This document shows positions 7,531-34,293 of a stretch of 64,000 bases of DNA, in pieces (positions within the stretch are counted from its first letter, which is position 1; the number at the start of each line of letters is the position of its first letter). The DNA lies in the NCBI GenBank assembly GCA_964016885.1, contig OZ024759.1, positions 5,270,001 to 5,334,000 of the forward strand, read 5' to 3'. The notes below the pieces were generated by a model. It made no database searches, was not told where the DNA came from, and saw only the letters and a list, made by a program, of their open reading frames with translations. Source of the stretch: Eledone cirrhosa (taxonomy: Eukaryota). The position numbers and the translations under genes were made by a program.

Positions 7531-7777
7531 TATAATATATACTATGTATCAATAAATATCATATACTTTTTTTATTTTACTATATTTATATATAAAATTT
7601 ATCATTTGATATTTGATATACTATTATATCCTCTCCACCCCCATCCTTAAGCCCCAGCACCCCTCTTGGGGCAGTAGCACCCACTTTGAGAACCTCTGTT
7701 CTAGAGGGAAGTGAAATTGTAAAGTGTAACAGGCAAGAAGACAACATTTTTCCAAACAAACAAAAAAACCAACTTAC

Positions 7778-8035
7778 TATCAATATAGTTATAATATATC
7801 CTTAGTTGGGAAATATCGTATGTTTGTCTGAGTTCAAGAGTCCACAATGATGTTGGAGAGCTCATTGTATGAGAACAAGATCTGTGTTGTGGGTTTTGAT
7901 CGAAGTTACCATCTACAGCCAGGTTAGCTGACATTGAGTACATTTCATTGCGACAAACATTGTTTTTCATTAGAATTACACTGCTTGTTTTGTCTGTCGT
8001 GGTTTGTGTAGCTACTTTACCAATAGCTATATTTC
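7778..8035 (-). CDS. Internal exon: N-terminal half of an F-type lectin / galactose-binding-like domain
   Basis: TTTTTCAG acceptor, GTAAGT donor, 258 bp, phase 1-1, open: RNIAIGKVATQTT...ANLAVDGNFDQNPQHRSCSHTMSSPTSLWTLELRQTYDISQLRIYYNYID. Confidence 0.85.
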
Positions 8036-8204
8036 CTGAAAAAGAATGAAAGAAAATTTAATGAAAGTCAATTACTATGAAATGAAATGGATCTCAGTCA
8101 GTTGAAACGATGATTGATCCAGTGGGAAAAGACAAATTGTTTTCTATATACTAAACTTTTGAAATATCTTTTACGTTATCTCTAAATTATTCCATATTTC
8201 CAGT

Positions 8205-12235: not shown

Positions 12236-15200
12236 ATGGCACTCAATGACAATGTCACAGATAAAGACAAATTCACCTCCTGCTGCAAGACGAGAATACA
12301 AGGACCCCTCTTTATTTCAGACACAGATGACCAACAAAATCCCGTCTCCCACACCCCTCCCTGCCCCTCCAACCCATCCATCCCACCCTCCCAACTTCAG
12401 AGTTGGTACCATGAACGTAGGCACATTGAAAGGTCGCTCAAATGAGGTTGTAGAGATGCTTGAACGTAAAGAAGTTGATGTTTGTTGTATTCAAGAGACT
12501 AGGTGGAGAGGGGGATCTGCCAGATTCATCGTGGGTAAAAAACGATGCTATAAACTTTTCTGGGTGGGAAATGACAACGGACAGGGTAGTGTAGGAATTA
12601 TGTTAGCTGAAAAATGGGTAGATAAGGTAATGACGTAAATATAGTGAATGACAGAATAATTGAATTAAGACTAGTTCTAAATAGAATTACTGTGACAATA
12701 ATATCCGCTTATGCACCCCAATCTGGTCTACCTGATGTTATAAAGGACAGGTTCTATGAGATGCTAATGCACACTACCTTCCAAATAACCGACAGCGACT
12801 ACTTAATTATTGCTAGCGATCTAAACAGTCACGTTGGACAACATAGTGATGGCTATGATGGAATTCATGGAGGCTATGGGGTTGGAAATAGAAATGAGAA
12901 GGGTTTCAGAATCCTGGAATTCTGTGATGCAAATAGCCTAACTATATGTAACACAAACTTCAAAAAACGTGAAAACCACTTGATCACCTATAGATCAGGG
13001 GAACACGCCAGCCAGATAGATTATATCCTTACTAGAAGACGGGACAAAATGTCTGTTGTAAACTCTAAATCCCTCCCCCGTGAAGAATGCCCCTCCCAAC
13101 ATCGCCTAGTAGTTAGTGACCTCATAGCCAGGAATAGACGTACTCGACGACAGAGGAGGCCTACCTTGAGGAGAAGAATATGGAAGTTGAAGGACCCCAT
13201 AGCCAGTGACAAATTTAAAAGCTTATTATTTGTTGCCTTTGACAATAAGGAAGAGCAATTAGAGACGTGCAATAGAGAGGAACAGTGGCAATCCTTGAAA
13301 GTGAACCTGCTGAAAGCAACGGATGAAATCTGTGGCTGGAGCAGACCTATTGGCAGGAGGAGAGTAACTTGGTGGTGGAACAGTGAGGTGGAAGAGACAA
13401 TCAAGGGCAAAAAGCAGGCTTGGAAAGAATGGCAGGATGGGGGGCGTAGAGAGCACTATCAAGTGGCCAGGAGAGAAGCTAGGAGACAAGTGTACCTTGC
13501 AAAAAGGGTAGCAGAGGATAGAAAGTTCAAGCATGTTCTGCAACGTGAGGACCAAAAACGTGAGGTGTTCAGGATTGCTAGACAATGTGTCAAGGAAAAC
13601 CGTGATATTGTCGGGGAGAAGTGTGTCCGTAATGATAATGGTGTACTTGCGCTCACTGATACTGATAAGCCTGGAAGAGGCACTACGAGAGACTATTAAA
13701 TGAGAAGAATAAATGGGAAAAAGATAGTCTGCCCCAAATCGATCCAATGGTGCAAGGTAAAGGTAGTATAATAAGTAAGGCAATCAAAGATATGAAGACA
13801 GGCAAGGCAGCTGGGCCTTTGGAGGTAGTTGCTGAGATGCCTTCAACATCTGGTATGGTGGGACACACTATGGTCACACGTATAGTTAACCAAGTAATAC
13901 AGAATGGAGTCATACCGAAAGACTGGCGTAGCAGCATCATCATTAACTGCTACAAGGGTAAAGGGGATGCTCTAGATAGGGGAAACTATAGAGGCATTAA
14001 GTTAGTTGACCAGGTCATGAAGATCACAGAAAGAGTAATAGCGCAACTAATCAGAGAGCGAATTGATCTAGATGAAATGCAGTTTGGGTTTGTGTCAGGT
14101 AAAAGTACCACAGACGCTCTTTTCCTTGTACAACTACAAGAGAAGTACCTAGCTAAAAGTAAACCCCTCTACTTAGCTTTTGTAGACCTGGAGAAAACTT
14201 TTGACAGAGTCCCCCGCTCCATTATCTGGTGGGCTCTTAGAAAACTAGATGTAGATGAATGGCTGGTGAGAGCTATACAAGCTATGTATAATGAAACAGT
14301 CAGTAAGGTTAGAATTAACAATGAATATTGTGAAGAATTTAGTGTAAAAGTTGGCGTTCATCAAGGCTCTGTCCTTAGCCCCCTCTTATTTATTATTGCC
14401 CTTCAGGCTATAACAGAGGAGTTCAAGACCCGCTGCCCATGAGAACTCCTATACGCAGATGATCTAACGCTCATAGTTGAATCAATGGCTGAACTAGAGA
14501 AGAAATTCGAAACATGGAAGCATGGCCTAGAATCAAAAGGCCTTAAAGTTAACTTGTCTAAGACTAAAGTTCTAGTTTGTAGAAAGGAAAATAGGGCACA
14601 GGTGCCCTCAAGGAAATGGCTATGCTCAGTGTGTAGGAAAGGAGTAGGCAGAAATTCCATTTTATGTCCCAAATGCAAAGTATGGGTACATAAAAGATGT
14701 AGTGGGATCACAGGTAAACTATCTCAGAACGTAGACTTTATATGTGGCCAATGCTCAGGTGCAATAAGTAGCAAGTGTCCAAAGGATACTAGCTCCTTCC
14801 ATTGCCCAGATGGTTCTATAGAAATAGTAGACACTTTCCGTTACCTGGGTGACGAAATCAACAGTGGTGGAGGGTGTTCTGAAAGTACAGTAGCCAGAGT
14901 CAGAACGGGATGGAAAAAGTTCAGAGAGCTTATACCGTTGTTGGCCACAAAAGGTTTCTCTCTAAAAATGAAAGGCAGATTGTATGATGCCTGTTTCTCT
15001 CTAAAAATGAAAGGCAGATTGGTATGGCCATGTGATGCGCATTAAAGACGACAGTTGTATAAAAAAAGTGCAGGGCGATCAAAATTGATGGTAGTTACGG
15101 AGTAGGTAAACCCAGAAAAACCTGGGATGATCTGATAAATTCCGACCTTACATACTTACATCTCTCTAAGACAATGTCTCTGGACCGAGATCTTTGGTGC

Positions 15201-16470: not shown

Positions 16471-16621
16471 AACTGGTGACCCCGTAAAACAGACACACAA
16501 CTTCTGATCATCCACTACAAACGATGTCTCTAGCACACGACGATTCATCTACGGCAGAAATGGCAGTGAGGGGGGCATTTACATTAAGAATTCCACCATT
16601 CTGGGTGCACGATCTAACACT

Positions 16622-19075
16622 GTGGTTCGCGCACATCCAAGCGCAGTTCGCATAATAACACACGACCCACCTGTCGCTGCACGACCTAGAAGGCTACCAC
16701 CAGACCGGCTGAAGTCCGTCAAACAAGAATTTCAGCACATGCTGGATCTCGGCATCATACGTCTGTCCTCACCCATACACTGTGTACCCAAGAAGTCGTC
16801 GAACGACTGGCGAATCTGTGGCGACTACCGTGCACTAAACAACTGCACCGTTCCTAACTCTTATCCAGTACCTCATCTACAGGACTTCTCTAGCTCGCTG
16901 CATGGGGCTCGCATATTTTCGAAGATCGATCTTGTCGAGCTTAACAATCAGATACCCGTTGAGCCCGCAGATATTCCAAAGACCGCAGTCACAACACCCT
17001 TTGGAATGTTCGAATTTCTGCGTATGCCTTTCGGTTTGCGAAATGCAGCGCAAACATTCCAGCGATTCATCGATACAGTCACCAGGGGTCTACCTTTTGT
17101 ATACGCATACATTGACGACTTACTGGTGGCCAGCAGCTCCGACGAAGGACATGAGAAACACCTGGATCTCCTATTCACACGTTTGCGTGAATATGGAATT
17201 GTTATCAACCCCAGCAAATGTGAGTTCGGAGTTGCGTCCCTTCATTTTCTGGGACACATCATTGACAAAGATGGTATTTGCCCACTTAAGGAGAAAGTCA
17301 AATCCATCATTGATTTTCCACAACCTATATCTCTCCGCAAACTGCGAGAATTTCTTGGCCTGGTAAACTTCTACAGAAGATTTATACCCCACTGTGCAGA
17401 GACAGCCCAACCACTCACAGATTTGCTGCGGCAGCGTACAACCAAAAACGCAAACATCAAGCTTCGCTGAGTTGAAGAAAATGTTGTCCGAGGCTACAAT
17501 GCTGAGTTACCCCAAACCTGACGCCCCAATGTGTTTATTGACTGATGCATCCGATTTCGGAGTTGGAGGTGTGCTTCAACAACTCTCTGGCGATATTTGG
17601 CGACCTGTATCTTTTTTCTCTAAGCGATTAAAACCCGCCGAAACTAAGTACAGCACATTCAGTCGTGAATTATTGGCAGCATACCTTGCTGTCAAGCATT
17701 TTCGACACATGCTAGAAGGTCGTGTGTTCTCTATATACACCGACCACAAACCACTAGTGTACGCGTTCAATGCCAAGCCTGACCGACACTCACCCAGGGA
17801 GGTCCGACATCTGGACTTCATTTCTCAGTACACTACTGATATTCGGTACATTAAGGGTGCCACCAACTCAGCAGCTGATGCCCTATCGCGCATGGAGCTT
17901 AAGGCAATCCACACCACTGCCACTATCGACCTCCAGAAGATTGCAGCGGATCAACAGAATGACGAGGAACTGCTGCAACTCCGGAAATCATCCTTGAAAT
18001 TGAAGGAATGCCTGCTGCCCTCTTCTTCGGGTTATATTTGGTGTGACATCTCCACAGGCCGCGAGCGCCCATACGTGCCCCGGAAACATCGACGCGACGT
18101 TTTCTCGACACAGCATTCTCTGGCACATCCTGGCGTCTGCGCCACGCAGAAACTGATGGTTGCCCGCTTTGTGTGGCCCAACATCAACAAGGACACCCGC
18201 GAATGGGCTAGGAACTGCATCGCGTGCCAGAAGGCGAAAATTCACCGGCACATCAAAGCCCCGATCGCTTCTTTCGCAACACCTGATGCACGGTTCCAAC
18301 ATGTGCATATAGACATAGTTGGACCTTTGCCTCCTTCTCAAAACTACACTCATCTTCTCACCTGTGTCGACCGATTTTCTCGCTGGCCAGAAGCTTTTCC
18401 CCTGACGGATATTACTGCGGAAACTGTTGCCAAAACGTTAGTGTTTCACTGGGTTTCGCGTTTCGGCACACCCGTGACCATCACTACGGATAGAGGACGT
18501 CAGTTCGATTCGAACCTATTTACCGAGCTGCCTCGTCTCCTCGGGTGCAAACACATCCATACAACAGCGTATCACCCTGCCGCTAACGGCATGGTAGAAC
18601 GCTTACACCGCCAGCTAAAATCATCTATCAAGGCTTACGAAGACTCCACTAACTAGTTCGAATACCTCCCACTCATTCTTCTTGGTATTTGTTCCACTGT
18701 TAAAGAGGGAGTCGGACATTCTCCGGCTGAAATCGTGTATGGCACCGTACTCACTCTACCCGGACAAATGATCACTCCTGTTTCGCCACAAGAACTTCCA
18801 GACCCTACAAAATATGTGCACCGTTTACGGTCATCAATGTCGCATGTCTCCTTCAGCCCCTAAACAACAGCACGTTACTTCACACATACCAAAAGACATC
18901 GATACATGTTTTCGTTAGAAATGACGGTATTCCATCGCAACTTCGTCCACCGTATTCCGTCCGGGCCCTACAAGGTGATACAGAAATGCCCTAAGTATTT
19001 CGTCCTCGACTTGAACGGGAAGCGAAATAACGTCTCCATTGATCGTTTAAAAAAAGCGTTCATAGAACAGGAATT
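16622..19075 (+). pseudogene. pol: Gypsy pol remnant (RT, RNase H, integrase)
   Basis: [34 protein letters not shown]; TDASD, RELLA, TDHKPL; HSLAHPG...CIACQ, HIDIVGP, TTDRG, NGMVER; GPY motif near 18963. Frameshift near 17465 and TAG at 18654. Confidence 0.93.
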
Positions 19076-20741: not shown

Positions 20742-20932
20742 TATCATGGCTTAGTGGTTAAAGCATTGGGCTTGCAATCTAAAGGTTGTGAGTTCGATTC
20801 TCGGACAGGGTGTTGTGTTGTGTCCTTGAGCAAGACACTTTATTTCACGTTACTCCAGTTTACTCAGCTGTAGAAATGAGTTGTGATGTCACTGGTGCCA
20901 AGCTATATCAGTCATAACCTTTCTCTTGGACA
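20742..20932 (+). mobile_element. tRNA-derived CORE-like SINE
   Basis: TGGCTTAGTGGTTAAAGC A box, GAGTTCGATTCTC B box, TGTCCTTGAGCAAGACACTT. The 3' part recurs at ~23503-23557 and ~23667-23850. Confidence 0.82.
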
Positions 20933-27017: not shown

Positions 27018-27752
27018 TGAAAATTTAAAATTTCCACTGTTAAATCTATCCCTGCATTTTAAGTATTCTCTATTATCTCATACTGTTACTTTCTTATAAG
27101 TCCTATAAGAATGCAATTTTTGCTAAACTGCCATAGAGCAGACCTCTGAAGTGATAGAAGGATATAATTTATAGAGCATGCTGGAATACCACTGCTTACA
27201 TTGGAGAGAATTTCTCTGGACAGAATGTTGATATCTACAGTTTACCAATATAGAAATATAACATTTCCACTGTTAAATCTATCTCTGCTTCTAAAGTATT
27301 CTCTATTATCTCATACTGTTTCTTTCTTATTTCAGAATATCAGATGACATTGGGATAAATTATTATTTTCAATCTTGGATACATCATCTCTATTTATCAT
27401 CATTTGAAGACTAAAACCTTCTAAACAGAACTTATATAACACTGTTTATATAAATCTATAGTTCAATTACTGTGAAATATTTCCTCAAAACTGAGTTTAT
27501 TTTCTTCACTATAAGATGGTTTTGTATTTTAACTAAACTTGGATGAAACAGAAGTTTGTATTATCTTCAGATATTAACTGAAATCACAGTTGAGGGAAAT
27601 ATAGAAGAATATTTTATAAGAAATATAATATAAAAAATATTACAAGAAAAACATCTGTATATTCTGTTGAAGAAGAAATCATTATGCCAAATAAATTGAC
27701 AAAGAAGATTAAATGTGTAACACAATCTAAAGTGTTTAGTATTGCTGGTGAG

Positions 27753-28400
27753 ATGACAAAGGTTAGAGAAGAGAAGCCATATCACTGTGATATCTGTGAT
27801 AAATCATTCTCTCAAAGTGGTACCTTAACTACTCACAAACGTATACATACAGGAGACAAGCCATATCACTGTGATATCTGTGGTATATCATTCTCTGGGA
27901 AAAGTAGCCTAACTACTCACAAATGTATACATGCAGAAGAGAAATCATAATGCATTGACATCAGTGATAAATCCTTCTCTCAAATTTGTGAATTAATGAG
28001 AATACAAATACATATCATTGTAACATCTTAGGGAAATCCTTCTCTTTGAATGTTACATTAACTATACACACACATATACATACAGCTGGGAAGCCATATC
28101 ACTTTGATATATTTGGTACATCATTCTCTAAATGTTGTGGCTTCACTAGACACCAACATCTACAGGAGAGGAACCATATCACTGTGATGTCTGTGATAAA
28201 TCCTTCTCTAAATGTTGTGGTTTCACTAGACACCAACATATACATACAGGAGAGGAACCATATCACTGTGATGTCTGTGATAAATCCTTCTCTAAATGTT
28301 GTGGTTTAATTAGACACTAACATATACAGGAGAGGAACTATATCACTGTGATGTCTGTGGTACATCTTTCTCTTATAAAGATTACTTAATGCAACACAAT
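27753..28400 (+). pseudogene. Tandem C2H2 zinc-finger pseudogene
   Basis: [54 protein letters not shown], then TAA (27948), frameshifts and ~5-6 decayed fingers. Acceptor-like TTTCTTTCTTATTTCAG ends at 27335; AATAAA at 28458. Confidence 0.85.
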
Positions 28401-29059: not shown

Positions 29060-30125
29060 TTAAAGGGTTCCATAGAAGCAGTTGACAGTTTCTGTTACCT
29101 GGGGTATCAAATAAGCAGTGGAGGTAGGTGTTCTGAAAGTACAGTAACAAGAGTAAGAACAAGATGGCAGAGGTTTAGGGTGTTACTACTGCTGCTAGCT
29201 ACAAAAGGTTGTTTCACCAAATTGATGTGTGCATATAAACAGCAATGCTGCATTGCAGTGAGGACCCCAGAAGATTGGATAGAAATGAAGCTTGAATTCT
29301 CCGATGGATGTGTAATATTAATATACATGAAGGGGAAAGTGTTAATAACCTGAGAGAGAACCTGGGCATGAGAGGGAAAAGATACAGTATGCAGGAGAGG
29401 AGATTGCTGTGGTATGGACATGTGATGTGTATGAAGGTAGAGATGCTGTATAAAAGGTTGACCACTTGAAATTGATGGAAGAGGAAGACCTAGGAATGCT
29501 TGGGATGTGGAGGTAAAAACTGACCTGACACCATTGTACCTCTCAAAGGTGATGACACAGGATTGAAATCTCTGGCGTTATACAGTACTGCAGGAGACCT
29601 GCATTCCCATGTGCACGGGTTGACACAACATTTAGTGGTTTGAAGTATGCTCCAATTTTCCTCCCCTTCACATCTTAACACTCCACCCCCTTACCAGCTA
29701 AGTACACCACCCTGACCTACCTCTCCAATCCCCACTCTACATACACACAACCCCACCCCCACTTTCACATCTGATACACCTCTCTTGACCAACCCATGTA
29801 TACAAGTAAGGAAAGCTTAACATTATCTCCTCCAATGCTGCTGAAATGGCTAAAAGCCCTCAGGCAACCCTGTAAGGTGGTCATGCAAGTGTCATGACAA
29901 AAGAGCACCAAGTCCTCTCTGTTAGGTAACATGACAAAAGAACACCTAACCCTCCCTGCAAGGTAGTCATGCTGATGACATGACAAATAAGCACCCAGTC
30001 CACCCTGTGAGGTAGACATGACAGAAGGCCCCTAGCCCACTCTGTAAAGTAGTCATGCTAGTGGCAAGACTGAAGGGACCCGAAGCACCCTTCAAAGTGA
30101 TCAAATTGGTGACATGACTTGACAC
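29060..30125 (+). mobile_element. RTE C-terminal fragment plus modular 3' UTR
   Basis: DSFCYLG...SSGGRCSESTVTRVRT, LLWYGHVM, GRGRPR. Then a C-rich tract and degenerate ~50-bp modules (29860-30125) related to the satellite subunit. Confidence 0.75.
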
Positions 30126-31173
30126 CATTTTTTAGTTTACTTCTAAAATATCTCATTTTTATTTTACTTCTAAAATATCTCATATATTTAAAAATTACTT
30201 ATTTTAAAAAATTATTATTTATTTCTTAAAAAAATTACTTTTTAAAGATTATTTAAAATTTTTTTATATTTTTTAATATTTTTTAAATATTTTTAAACAT
30301 TTTAAATAGTTTAAGTACTTTTTAAGTATTTTATTTTGTTAAAAGGGTTTTTTGAGTATCTTCTGAGATTAAAAAAAATTTTTTTTTTATTTTTCCAGAA
30401 ATGTTTTCCAGAACTTTTAATATTTTAATATTTTAAATATTTTTTAATTATTTAATATTAGAGTTATAACCAATAACTAATTCTGGCTATATATATCTTT
30501 CAACATTTATATCTTCGTCAAAATGGTCTCTTACTAACTAATAAATAAACAAAGCTGGGTTTTTCAGTATCTTCCTAATTTAAAACATTAAAAACATATA
30601 AATAATCTTATTAACTCAGTTAATTTAATTACTTACACTAAATATAAACCAGTATCCCTCATAACTTATTAAAACAATTATCTATAACATGATATAGCCA
30701 TTTATCCACTCATATATCTATTCTTCTATCTATTGATTCTCCTATTTTCTACTTTATATCTATTTATTTTCAATTTATTATTCAATGTCTTTATATATAT
30801 TTATTTTTTCTATATATCTATTTTTCTATATACTTATAATAGTAAATATTATATTGTATTATATTAGAATTCTAACAATAATTAGTAAATATACGTAACA
30901 TTAATATAAACGTAATACTTATTTACGTTACATGAGTTCATCCTCTATAAATGTCTTTCTTCTCTCTATCTCTCTATCTATCTCATAACAGTAATTTTTT
31001 TCTCTCTCTTTCTTCTCTTTCTTCCCTATCTTTCCCCAGCGTAATTTAAATAAACGGTTGTTTTTTCAATTTTTCATACATTCATTTGCATATTCACACA
31101 TAACTTTGAATTACCCCTAATAAGTTTCCCTTATCCAGCGAATTTCCGACCGTTATTTATAAAACAAATTTTG

Positions 31174-31238
31174 TATTTTATCTGATGAAAGAGCACCAAG
31201 ATTGACTTGGTCGCCCTTGAAATATATATAATAAAATA
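31174..31238 (+). ncRNA. Minimal type-I hammerhead ribozyme, copy 1
   Basis: Stem I TATTTTAT/ATAAAATA (8 bp perfect); core CTGATGA (31182-31188); stem II AAG.GC.ACCAAG-attga-CTTGGT.GC.CTT; GAAA (31219-31222); palindromic mini stem III TATATA; AUA cleavage triplet ending at 31230. Confidence 0.82.
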
Positions 31239-31430
31239 AATATGCAAAAGTTCTATTTAAATTGTTGGGATACAACAAGCAAATATGTTTATAACTGATA
31301 TAAAGCACTCAACAAGTATTTGGAATAAACATACGATATTAACAATCCTTTTGTATTTTATGTACTCAATTATATTATGTACTATATTGATTTATACTTC
31401 TCTCTATATGTGAGTATATATGTATATGTG

Positions 31431-31565
31431 TATATTGACATACATGTACATGTGTTCTATGCATTTTTATGAATATATTGACATACATGTACATGCGTTC
31501 TATGCATTTTTATGAATATATTGACATACATGTACATGCGTTCTATGCATTTTTATGAATATATG
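31431..31565. repeat. 43-bp tandem repeat, 3 copies
   Basis: TATATTGACATACATGTACATGYGTTCTATGCATTTTTATGAA at 31431, 31474 and 31517. Confidence 0.92.
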
Positions 31566-32421
31566 TCTGTCTGTATGTATGCATGCGTGACGCGAATCTA
31601 CCAATTGGCCGAGGATGCACACACATGTATATATATGTATATGTAAGAATTGTGTGTGTACATGTACATGTATACCCATACAATTTGATTGCAGATAGAC
31701 ATAACTAACAGCCATAAATGCATACCAGCTAATCTTATATATTTATATATATATATTAAAAACATTTTTTATAAAAAATATTTTATTTAATAACACAAAG
31801 GATGGATAACATTAAATTAAAAATTCATTTATGCTTTGTATGTATATATTATATACGTGGTTAGATATGGTGTGTATTTTGTGAGTGTGTGTATATATAT
31901 ATATTTATGTGTATTTTTGCGTGTGTGTACGTGTTATATGATATGTAGTTCTCTAGCAATATATAGATTTCTTAATGTTTAGATTCCAATTTTTAATATA
32001 TTGATCTCAATTTTTAAACTAAATATCTAATCATAGTTAAACAATGATTAATTTCTCATATTATGTATGTATATTCCATTCATGATTATTAATATTTCTA
32101 ATTTTATTTATTCATTTCATCTCAATTGTTAAGTTAACTTAATATGACATGACTTAATGTGTTCATTCTTTCCCCTCTCTCTATCTCTATATTTTTCTCT
32201 CTGTCTGGTGTTTTGATATATCTCTCTCGTTTTTCTCTCCTTTTTCTTTCTTTCTGTCTCCCTTTTCTCTCTCTCCGTCCTTTTCCTTATCTGTAACACA
32301 ACGACTTATTTTAAAAATACTAATATAAGTAAACAACTCCACTATCCCTGAGTCTTCCAAAAGTAACGGTTGCATTTTGTAAGGGTATGTCAATATTTAT
32401 TTATAAAACTGTTATATATTG

Positions 32422-32486
32422 TATTTTGTCTGATGAAAGCATACCATAATTTAACATGGTATCCTTGAAATATGTATAATGAAATA
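32422..32486 (+). ncRNA. Minimal type-I hammerhead ribozyme, copy 2
   Basis: Stem I TATTTTGT/ATGAAATA (two G-U pairs); CTGATGA (32430-32436); stem II AAG.ATACCAT-aatttaac-ATGGTAT.CTT; GAAA (32467-32470); TATGTA; AUA triplet ending at 32478. Confidence 0.78.
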
Positions 32487-32554
32487 GATATGGTTTTATA
32501 AATATAGTTTCCATTTGTTAATATCGTATAATAAAATAAATATAGTTTTATAAA

Positions 32555-32930
32555 TCATCATCACCGTTTTACGTCCGTTCTTCCATGCTAGCATGGGTTA
32601 GACGGGTTGTCCTGTTGTGGGCAGTGTCTGGTCGGCTGACCATGCCTTGCTCATACAGGAACTGATTTTGGCTTTTCTACAGCCGGATGCCCTTCCTAAC
32701 ACCAACCTCATTTACAGTGAGTGTTGCGTGCTTTTTTCCGTGGCGCCCACATGTCCACTTTACAGTGTGGGCTGGGTGCTTTTTCTGTGTGGCACCTCCA
32801 CGACCACTTTGCAGTGGGAGGGTGTGGGGGCATATTGTCTATATGCTTCATCTTGAACCCATGGAAGGTCGGGTACTCTGTATTACTGCGTGACGCCAGA
32901 GGTCACGGTCGTGTGTCATCATCGCCTTTG
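32555..32930 (-). mobile_element. RTE 3' UTR fragment
   Basis: (TCA)n tail; closely similar to 20978-21240; contains TTTTCTACAGCCGGATGCCCTTCCTAACACCAACC. Confidence 0.85.
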
Positions 32931-34093
32931 AGAGGTGTGTGTTTATATATATATATATATATATATATACAAATAAATTATCGAGAATCGGAATCTCGGC
33001 CCACGAAATAACGAAACACAATCTTCGAAAAGTGTAGCAAAGTGCTCAATAGTTTGGATAAACCAGAGCTATAACTAATATTTAAATACCAACACACTGA
33101 GATAATGCTTAAAATCATTCGCACAGCCGAAAAAACGACCAAGAAAATTCGGGTCAGACAAATAATAAATATATATATATATATTTTTTCTTTTAACATA
33201 TATGTGTATATAAAATATATACAGGAACTCCCCAAAAATGTATACACACTTCAACTACAGTCTATGTAAGTGTGTATATATTTTTGGGGGACACTGTAAT
33301 ATACATATCATTAAACGTATCTCCTACATGTGTATAAATAAATATACATGTATTTTATTAACAATTTTCTGTAGAATCTGTTAAACATGGAAGAAAATGT
33401 GGAGACTAAATAAAATTAACGTGTTGGTCACATTAACTTAATAATATAACTATATATTAATGAAATATGTCGAAATAAAAGTTGTAATTGTGACAAAAAT
33501 ATTGATTCGGTAGTTTATTATGACCAAGATTGAATATTTAATGGAATTAAGTGGAATTTATTAGGAAATAAGACAATAAAACAGTGAAATGTTGAGGTTA
33601 AAAGAGAGAAAAACAAAATGTCCTCTCTTTATAAACTTTAATGTGGTTGAATTAGTAGCGGCTCGGCTTACTAAACTCAGCTCTCTCAAGGGTTCGAATC
33701 TCACGTAGTTTACTATAGTGTCTACAGAGTTATCTCCTACTGCTTTTATATAGTATCACTGTTTATTGTAAAGAGGGCGCTACAATCATTTACTAGTGTG
33801 ACCAATGGTTTGCAGTCTGGCTTACTAACGCCAGGACTAAAGTGTTACATGGTTCCAACCGGGCTGGTTCCTTAATTTTTAAAAAGAGTTATCACCCATA
33901 GTCTTTCAGAGATTCCTCGAAAGGTGGCGTGGCGATCTGCTTTCATGAGGAGTAGTAAGAGACAATAATATATGTAAGGAGGAGGAGTGAGAGAGACAAA
34001 AACAAAACTGTGTTAATTCTCTCTCCCCCTCGCTTCTTTTACTCTATCTACCTGTTATGTCTTCATTTCACTGTTTTATTGTCTTACTAGCAG

Positions 34094-34293
34094 NNNNNNN
34101 NNNNNNNNNNNNNNNNNNNNNNNNNNNNNNNNNNNNNNNNNNNNNNNNNNNNNNNNNNNNNNNNNNNNNNNNNNNNNNNNNNNNNNNNNNNNNNNNNNNN
34201 NNNNNNNNNNNNNNNNNNNNNNNNNNNNNNNNNNNNNNNNNNNNNNNNNNNNNNNNNNNNNNNNNNNNNNNNNNNNNNNNNNNNNNNNNNNNN
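34094..34293. other. Assembly gap (200 N)
   Basis: Exactly 200 N, a fixed-size scaffolding gap. True distance and adjacency are unknown. Confidence 0.99.

Follow-up and report, generated by a model that had tools for sequence, protein, structure and literature searches.

The window (the whole stretch of DNA analysed here, 64,000 nt from Eledone cirrhosa) holds two hammerhead motifs, HHR1 and HHR2, surrounded by pieces of mobile elements (Table 1). The earlier note on this DNA had read them as two complete hammerhead cores of 65 nt each, 1248 bp apart on the same strand, and both lie where it had placed them. In HHR1, the CTGATGA core occupies 31182-88 and GAA 31219-21, followed by the palindrome ATATATAT at 31222-29 and A17 at 31230; in HHR2, the core lies at 32430-36, the palindrome ATATGTAT at 32470-77 and A17 at 32478.

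Table 1. Features of the hammerhead locus, in window coordinates.
Feature	Position	Strand	Basis or remark
Element 1, 5′-truncated copy of a Hydra-type PLE (3′UTR, HHR1, start of tail), no ORF left	30131-31243	+	similarity
HHR1, minimal type-I hammerhead	31174-31238	+	predicted cut 31230/31231; sequence, covariation
Left copy of target-site duplication, made by element 2	31227-31243	+	17 bp exact
Element 2, inverted 5′ piece (long tail of the family, reverse-complemented)	31244-31345	-	96-98% to tails in L033, L029 and L003
Element 2, body (3′UTR of a second subfamily, HHR2, short tail end)	31346-32526	+	83.7% to L002/L035
HHR2, minimal type-I hammerhead	32422-32486	+	predicted cut 32478/32479; polymorphic among duplicates
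Right copy of target-site duplication and displaced rest of element 1 tail	32527-32555	+	duplication 32527-32543
Unrelated dispersed repeat, SINE-like by appearance, interrupting element 1 tail	32554-32938	+	~91-93% to copies in L005, L134 and L135

Beyond this locus, the window contains a LINE remnant with endonuclease and RT (12626-15045, +), a frameshifted LTR-retroelement pol with RT, RNase H and integrase (16508-18656, +), and a partial tRNA match of 33.9 bits (20747-20804, +) that probably represents the head of a tRNA-derived SINE. At ~34094-34293, a run of N precedes a ~30-kb satellite (34294-64000; 111-bp unit, 267 copies, 94% matches, higher-order period of 334 bp). The satellite unit has a 23-bp motif in common with the dispersed repeat at 32554-32938, and the satellite may therefore derive from that repeat.

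Both motifs carry the core C3 U4 G5 A6 N7 G8 A9 / G12 A13 A14, together with A15.1-U16.1 and H17, but the usual G10.1-C11.1 closing pair is absent from both, with A-U in its place. Stem II consists of a 3-bp basal helix starting with this A-U pair, then a mismatch, for a total of 10-11 bp. The earlier note was thus right that stem II differs between the motifs yet pairs in each, although it had made the stem too short, and the differences in stem I do resolve as G-U pairs, as it had proposed. It had also contrasted a conserved core with diverged flanks; the core is indeed kept, but ~555 bp upstream of each core can be aligned at 60% identity.

As a monomer, neither motif can close stem III, which would be left with a 2-nt loop. 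The minimum-energy folds of the monomers contain stem II but not the full hammerhead, which makes up <2% of the computed ensemble, and the folding z-scores are -2.3 for HHR1 and -0.6 for HHR2. Lunse et al. are said to have reported that PLE hammerheads cleave as dimers. The profile search that the earlier note had proposed as a check came back empty: at the gathering score on the window, and at E<=10 on 30000-34000, Rfam gave no hammerhead family match. That Rfam misses both motifs matters for annotation.

The motifs nevertheless belong to a very large family. Searching the 3.0-Gb genome with the core pattern gave 17,281 exact matches, compared with 0 for the reversed control, a lower bound for the HHR matches of the family; a related variant pattern added 5,292 matches, the downstream tail motif was found 45,152 times, and a pattern search recovered 34,901 copies that read intact through the cleavage site. 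For the homologue and covariation analysis suggested in the earlier note, we hand-picked 20 variants from 114 extracted motifs so as to cover the subfamilies, and scored the 16 pairs that stay in register across all 20; the distal part of stem II, where bulges move the pairs out of register, was not scored. Covariation is seen in both stems: 97.5% of cells were paired and 9/16 pairs change on both sides, a level reached by 0/500 shuffles, while slid controls gave at most 3 two-sided pairs (these controls do not amount to a p-value, since the sequences are related). The closing pair 10.1-11.1 was A-U in 14 variants, G-U in 5 and G-C in 1.

We then looked at core conservation in copies chosen by their tail or protein rather than by their core. 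Of 84 tail-anchored copies, 18 were dropped as truncated before the count and 66 span the whole motif. At the 11 invariant core positions, only 11/726 cells deviate (1.5%), compared with 14.6% in stem II and its loop and 17.3% in the 5′ flank, gaps counted. Position N7 is T, G or A, and the core is intact in 57/66 copies. Core and pairing kept no better than the flanks were one part of what the earlier note had named as refuting it; this is not what the copies display. The presence of several diverged subfamilies with a conserved core makes selection on the ribozyme visible, and a hammerhead selected in master lineages, with copies then decaying neutrally, would give such a core pattern. We consider it confirmed that both motifs are real and not chance resemblances; their catalysis is predicted from sequence.

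The ATATRTAT palindrome recurs in further hammerhead families that are more diverged, at L106-L117, L086:5833-5905(-), L092:453-521(-), L112:890-958(+) and L088:1232-1320(+). One of them has 5,292 pattern matches, another is G/C-rich in stem I, and in a third stem II is very long. As the palindrome is common to these families, dimers across families would be allowed.

The earlier note had called the motifs minimal hammerheads of type I whose stem III is palindromic, of the kind found in Penelope-like element (PLE) repeats, and this identification holds. It had also suggested a search for a linked Penelope RT/GIY-YIG ORF, which we found in two full-length parent copies, L031 and L086, the copies in the window being truncated within the 3′UTR. 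Each full-length copy is made up of an HHR, ~190 nt, a single ORF, a 3′UTR of 1.3-2 kb, a second HHR and a tail, so that one RT + GIY-YIG ORF stands between HHR-bearing direct repeats, as in EN+ PLEs. The HHR-to-HHR unit measures 3,676 bp in L031 and ~3,860 bp in L086, and the ORF encodes, in order, RT, a CxCX5C linker and, C-terminally, GIY-YIG. In L086 the frame is open for 743 aa, but its RT site reads YRDY, where other copies have YRDD, and its linker carries a deletion; no fully intact ORF was seen among the family copies examined. In a tandem array at L090-L091 (G000:C4 316.575-316.595 Mb), 4 family copies lie head-to-tail with a period of ~4.0 kb, and every one of them terminates in a long tail followed by (TA)n.

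The family's protein motifs are RWR, DKT, CNCRNKSNC, YVG, CSLC and CKH, with CxCX5CP present in 27/30 EN loci and no CCHH as judged by eye on the alignment. We obtained 31 protein homologues at E<=1e-10 (31-42% identity), all but one without a name; those that were aligned have the family's motifs too, with either RWK or RWR. The EN pieces match Pfam GIY-YIG at E 1.5e-4 and 2.7e-4, just below the curated cut-off, and a Pfam search of the whole L086 protein gave no match. The Hydra clade is defined by RWK, DKT, CxCX5C, CxxC and CxH around the conserved E and N, a lack of CCHH and a C-terminal EN, and its elements are generally <3 kb (Craig et al. 2021, PMC8557442). Our family has DKT, the CxCX5C linker, CxxC and CxH, a C-terminal EN and no CCHH, with RWR for RWK, and, by eye, (TA)n adjoins most of its ends of either length, in line with the clade's target preference. 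Its unit of 3.7-3.9 kb is larger than usual, size being a tendency of the clade and not a strict criterion. The family therefore fits the Hydra-clade definition, an assignment made by protein motifs and not by a tree. An N-terminal motif had first made us suspect the Naiad clade, which has an N-terminal GIY-YIG, a DKA motif and no known canonical HHR; the C-terminal EN, DKT and the presence of HHRs ruled this out. This particular family was not found in the Hydra-clade and PLE-hammerhead literature searched.

With the parent element in hand, the locus can be read as one element nested in another. Element 1 has 62% identity to the 3′UTR of full-length L031 and 81% to a subfamily relative, L164, whose GIY-YIG coding end stands upstream. 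The 3′UTR that matches the body of element 2 has an EN C-terminus (GIY-YIG) upstream of it in L035; this body contains a 43-bp tandem repeat at 31431-31564 and ends ~50 nt past the cleavage site. Element 2 thus has the standard PLE form of an inverted long tail, a truncated body and a short tail, and inverted pieces are typical of PLEs (PMC8557442), copies of which also insert into or beside earlier copies (PMC6765202). No ORF was found between or around the HHRs in six frames, nor any match to the family protein in window 1-34290 by tblastn.

Element 2 is flanked by an exact 17-bp repeat (31227-31243 = 32527-32543), from which we estimate a target duplication of 10-17 bp, because up to 7 bases could be AT microhomology at the element's ends. 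The left copy includes the cleavage triplet of HHR1 and the 3′ strand of its stem I. Older paralogues (L158-L160, 89-93% identical upstream) are without element 2 and contain a single copy of the 17-mer, which in L159 and L160 follows an intact HHR1 with nothing in between. In these empty-site paralogues the sequence now displaced to the right of element 2 follows HHR1 directly, and the dispersed repeat at 32554-32938 is already in place. Element 2 (31244-32526) therefore inserted into the cleavage-site region of HHR1, and the duplication left HHR1 whole. Whereas (TA)n targets usually hide the target duplication in the Hydra clade, here it is readable and confirmed by empty sites.

The HHR1-HHR2 pair is present ~27 times in the genome, and every copy checked lies within a large duplicated segment. 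A pattern for the junction, covering one junction form only, had 26 matches, distributed over 4 contigs; 15 of these form an array on the contig of the window at intervals of ~80-210 kb, and exact HHR1 occurs in 27 duplicates plus one dispersed copy. All 20/20 fetched loci (the window itself being one) match on the element-1 side, and 19 continue into the flank beyond; 4/4 loci that were extended have collinear flanks in common for 5-18 kb upstream at 95-98% identity. The duplicated segments measure 16-20 kb or more and have outside flanks in common. HHR spacing among them is mostly ~1.2-1.3 kb, but 1.8 or 3.8 kb in others. The duplication extends over G000:C20 at ~3.52-5.30 Mb, C27 at 13.1-15.4 Mb, C16 and C19, with older copies on C18 and C370; C20 carries at least 15 tandem units ~80-210 kb apart that are 95-99% identical where compared. 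Two candidate genes of the duplicated unit lie in the window: an exon-like piece at 7701-8057 (-), with a weak match to the F5/F8 type C galactose-binding domain (E 1e-4, below cut-off), and C2H2 zinc-finger repeats with frameshifts at 27594-28373 (+).

Among 19 duplicates, 3.0% of sites segregate, none of them in HHR1 and two in HHR2, where T32466C breaks the 10.1-11.1 pair in 6/19. The pair is not kept better than its surroundings, because 44% of 43-nt windows are also invariant, and we saw no selection on the pair among these 19 duplicates.

We also examined where insertions of the family end. Among 103 tail-bearing ends, 61 stop ~55 nt and 37 ~142 nt past the cleavage site, both lengths being slightly inflated by chance TA matches of a few bases; another 3 run on into the ORF, and the remaining 2 are of other kinds. 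In 14/16 outward-facing pairs of ends, one is short and one long. The tail is accordingly ~90 nt, compared with the 30-40 bp described, and the copies have the PLE features of 5′ truncation, partial tandems, an inverted 5′ copy and a tail at one end only. Consensus ends of Hydra elements in File S2 of PMC8557442 lie ~100 or ~170-210 nt after the HHR start, two classes that may mean that long tails are widespread among Hydra elements in general.

If cleaved RNA served as the insertion template, junctions should pile up at the cleavage site. Taking the 34,901 intact copies as reference, the base just before the site differs from the family in 563 copies, that at +1 in 586 and that at -3 in 267. 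Samples of 30 loci per set, the first among the matches listed and nearly all on contig C1, contained 1 true junction just before the cleavage site, 5 at +1 and 7 at -3. We rejected the cleaved template on this result (1/30 against 7/30 and 5/30 at control positions): in the sampled loci, where (TA)n junctions could hide by microhomology, genomic 5′ ends did not accumulate at the cleavage site. Since insertions end downstream of the cleavage site of the 3′ HHR, the template RNA would have been uncut there, and uncut RNA is likely the template of family insertions. That insertions end past this site, with no pile-up at it, agrees with the single in vitro study. Single inverted insertions at L192/L193 and L196-L198 have G at position 17 in each of their two arms, a base expected to prevent cleavage, which hints that insertion can proceed from templates whose ribozyme is dead.

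Given these results, how should the pair of hammerheads be explained? In the proposal of the earlier note, HHR1 and HHR2 would bound a retrozyme-like element, non-autonomous and with no ORF, from which dimer cleavage would release a mobile 1.25-kb RNA. The two intact cores on one strand, their complementary palindromes (duplex -3.2 kcal/mol) and the recurrence of the junction in 26 copies would all suit this proposal, and a cis dimer at the locus is geometrically possible. Yet the interval consists of the inverted tail and 3′UTR of an ORF-bearing PLE, inserted with a target duplication into an existing HHR1 copy; the empty-site paralogues point to a single nested insertion; the copies have outside flanks in common, as segmental duplicates do; the HHR spacing is not kept; and the released piece would be without the downstream tail in which family insertions end. 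Known animal retrozymes, moreover, are 170-400-nt tandem repeats (PMC7229834). Empty sites and common flanks largely refute the proposal, which we now regard as scarcely credible. We likewise rejected the HHR as an insertion hot spot or mobile composite unit, all copies examined being segmental duplicates of one event.

A pair of nested origin could still have been co-opted, such that a cis dimer cuts host read-through transcripts into a ~1.2-kb linear or circular RNA, or ends transcription; were this so, a retrozyme-like RNA would have been born from PLE debris and its cassette carried to ~27 loci by duplication. It would fit that the target duplication rebuilt HHR1 completely, that HHR1 is identical in the 27 duplicates found, that the inverted tail can pair with the tail of HHR2 (31331-45 with 32513-29), and that C2H2 zinc-finger remnants lie ~3 kb upstream on the same strand. 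We nonetheless think co-option quite improbable, as the duplicates have no excess conservation, 6/19 carry the pair-breaking change in HHR2, a fold of the 1.44-kb stretch in which stem III is forced between the two HHRs lies 9.6 kcal/mol above the minimum-energy one, and minimal PLE HHRs are slow even as dimers (PMC4209133). Somewhat less improbable, though still unlikely, is that the motifs are non-catalytic structures resembling hammerheads, for instance a protein-binding PLE hairpin. The replacement of G-C by A10.1-U11.1, the AU-rich stem I, the rarity of the hammerhead fold in the monomer ensemble, the silence of Rfam and the missing 5′-end pile-up at the cleavage site could all be taken in this sense. 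However, invariance falls exactly on the catalytic positions and leaves N7 free, stems I and II covary across diverged families, published Hydra HHRs often have U at 11.1 too (File S2, PMC8557442), and the HHR of the related PAc does cleave in the presence of its protein (PMC11167929).

We therefore favor, with a probability of about 0.92, the reading in which HHR1 and HHR2 are the 3′ ends of two 5′-truncated copies of one abundant PLE family, of Hydra type by its motifs, the one nested in the other and the two segmentally duplicated ~27 times, likely as a neutral passenger. On this reading the locus is a remnant of an ordinary kind, and no new mobile RNA without a protein has to be assumed. 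By analogy with PAc biochemistry (PMC11167929), the element's protein would nick AT-rich DNA, and reverse transcription of uncleaved RNA would start internally, at either of two sites that lie downstream of the HHR, giving the two ends. The HHR, presumably kept by selection in master lineages, would cleave slowly, either by dimerizing through the ATATRTAT palindrome or with help from the protein, and its job would probably be to trim tandem or read-through transcripts at the 5′ repeat. The earlier note's statement that such hammerheads cleave efficiently as dimers was too strong, given low dimer activity in one study (PMC4209133) and cleavage only with the element's protein in another (PMC11167929). 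With tens of thousands of ends, the family is useful material for learning what PLE hammerheads do.

Hammerheads in PLE repeats, those of the Hydra clade included, have already been published, and our additions, a ~90-nt tail and a ~3.7-kb unit, are minor. Craig et al. (2021, PMC8557442) list canonical HHRs for Hydra families, among them an octopus one of different sequence. In common with Hydra-clade PLEs such as Penelope-n_HM, Hydra-1_Obim and Hydra-1_Crog, our family has RW(K/R), DKT, CxCX5C, a C-terminal GIY-YIG without CCHH, CxxC and CxH; an HHR of type I close to the 3′ end, frequently with U11.1; insertion into (TA)n; and truncated, tandem and inverted copies. It differs from them in an HHR sequence that matches none listed in the part of File S2 compared, Hydra-1_oBim included, in a unit of 3.7-3.9 kb as opposed to generally <3 kb, in RWR rather than RWK, and in a tail of ~90 nt as opposed to 30-40 bp. 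Further distinctions are a stem II of 10-11 bp with an internal mismatch, a stem III that is a pure ATATRTAT palindrome, and the tens of thousands of ends.

The minimal PLE hammerheads of Cervera and de la Pena (2014, PMC4209133), inactive as monomers and of low activity as dimers, are likewise type-I with a long helix II and a palindromic helix III, are mostly single motifs from truncated PLEs with some close inverted pairs, and fall into many subfamilies with compensatory changes; ours have A-U or G-U for G10.1-C11.1, no unpaired base after A9 and a helix I of 8 bp. The non-LTR retrozymes of metazoans (Cervera and de la Pena 2020, PMC7229834) also carry type-I HHRs in direct orientation in AT-rich sequence, with no ORF between them, as at our locus. 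However, they are non-coding head-to-tail repeats of 170-400 nt that give abundant linear and circular RNAs, short tandem HHR repeats mobile as a unit, whereas ours is a 1.25-kb nested PLE fragment whose copies are segmental duplicates. A further close parallel is PAc, a Poseidon PLE of Anolis and thus of a different clade, in which two ends reflect two internal starts of reverse transcription (Frangieh et al. 2024, PMC11167929). PAc nicks AT-rich DNA, its own repeat included; its insertion does not need HHR cleavage, and its HHR cuts only with protein present. Our family has, in the same manner, two genomic end points in the tail downstream of the HHR, AT-rich targets that include the element's own repeat, and no sign of cleaved RNA as a template. 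Unlike in PAc, its ORF starts ~190 nt after the cleavage site and not inside the HHR, and its tail is ~90 nt long rather than 30-40 bp.
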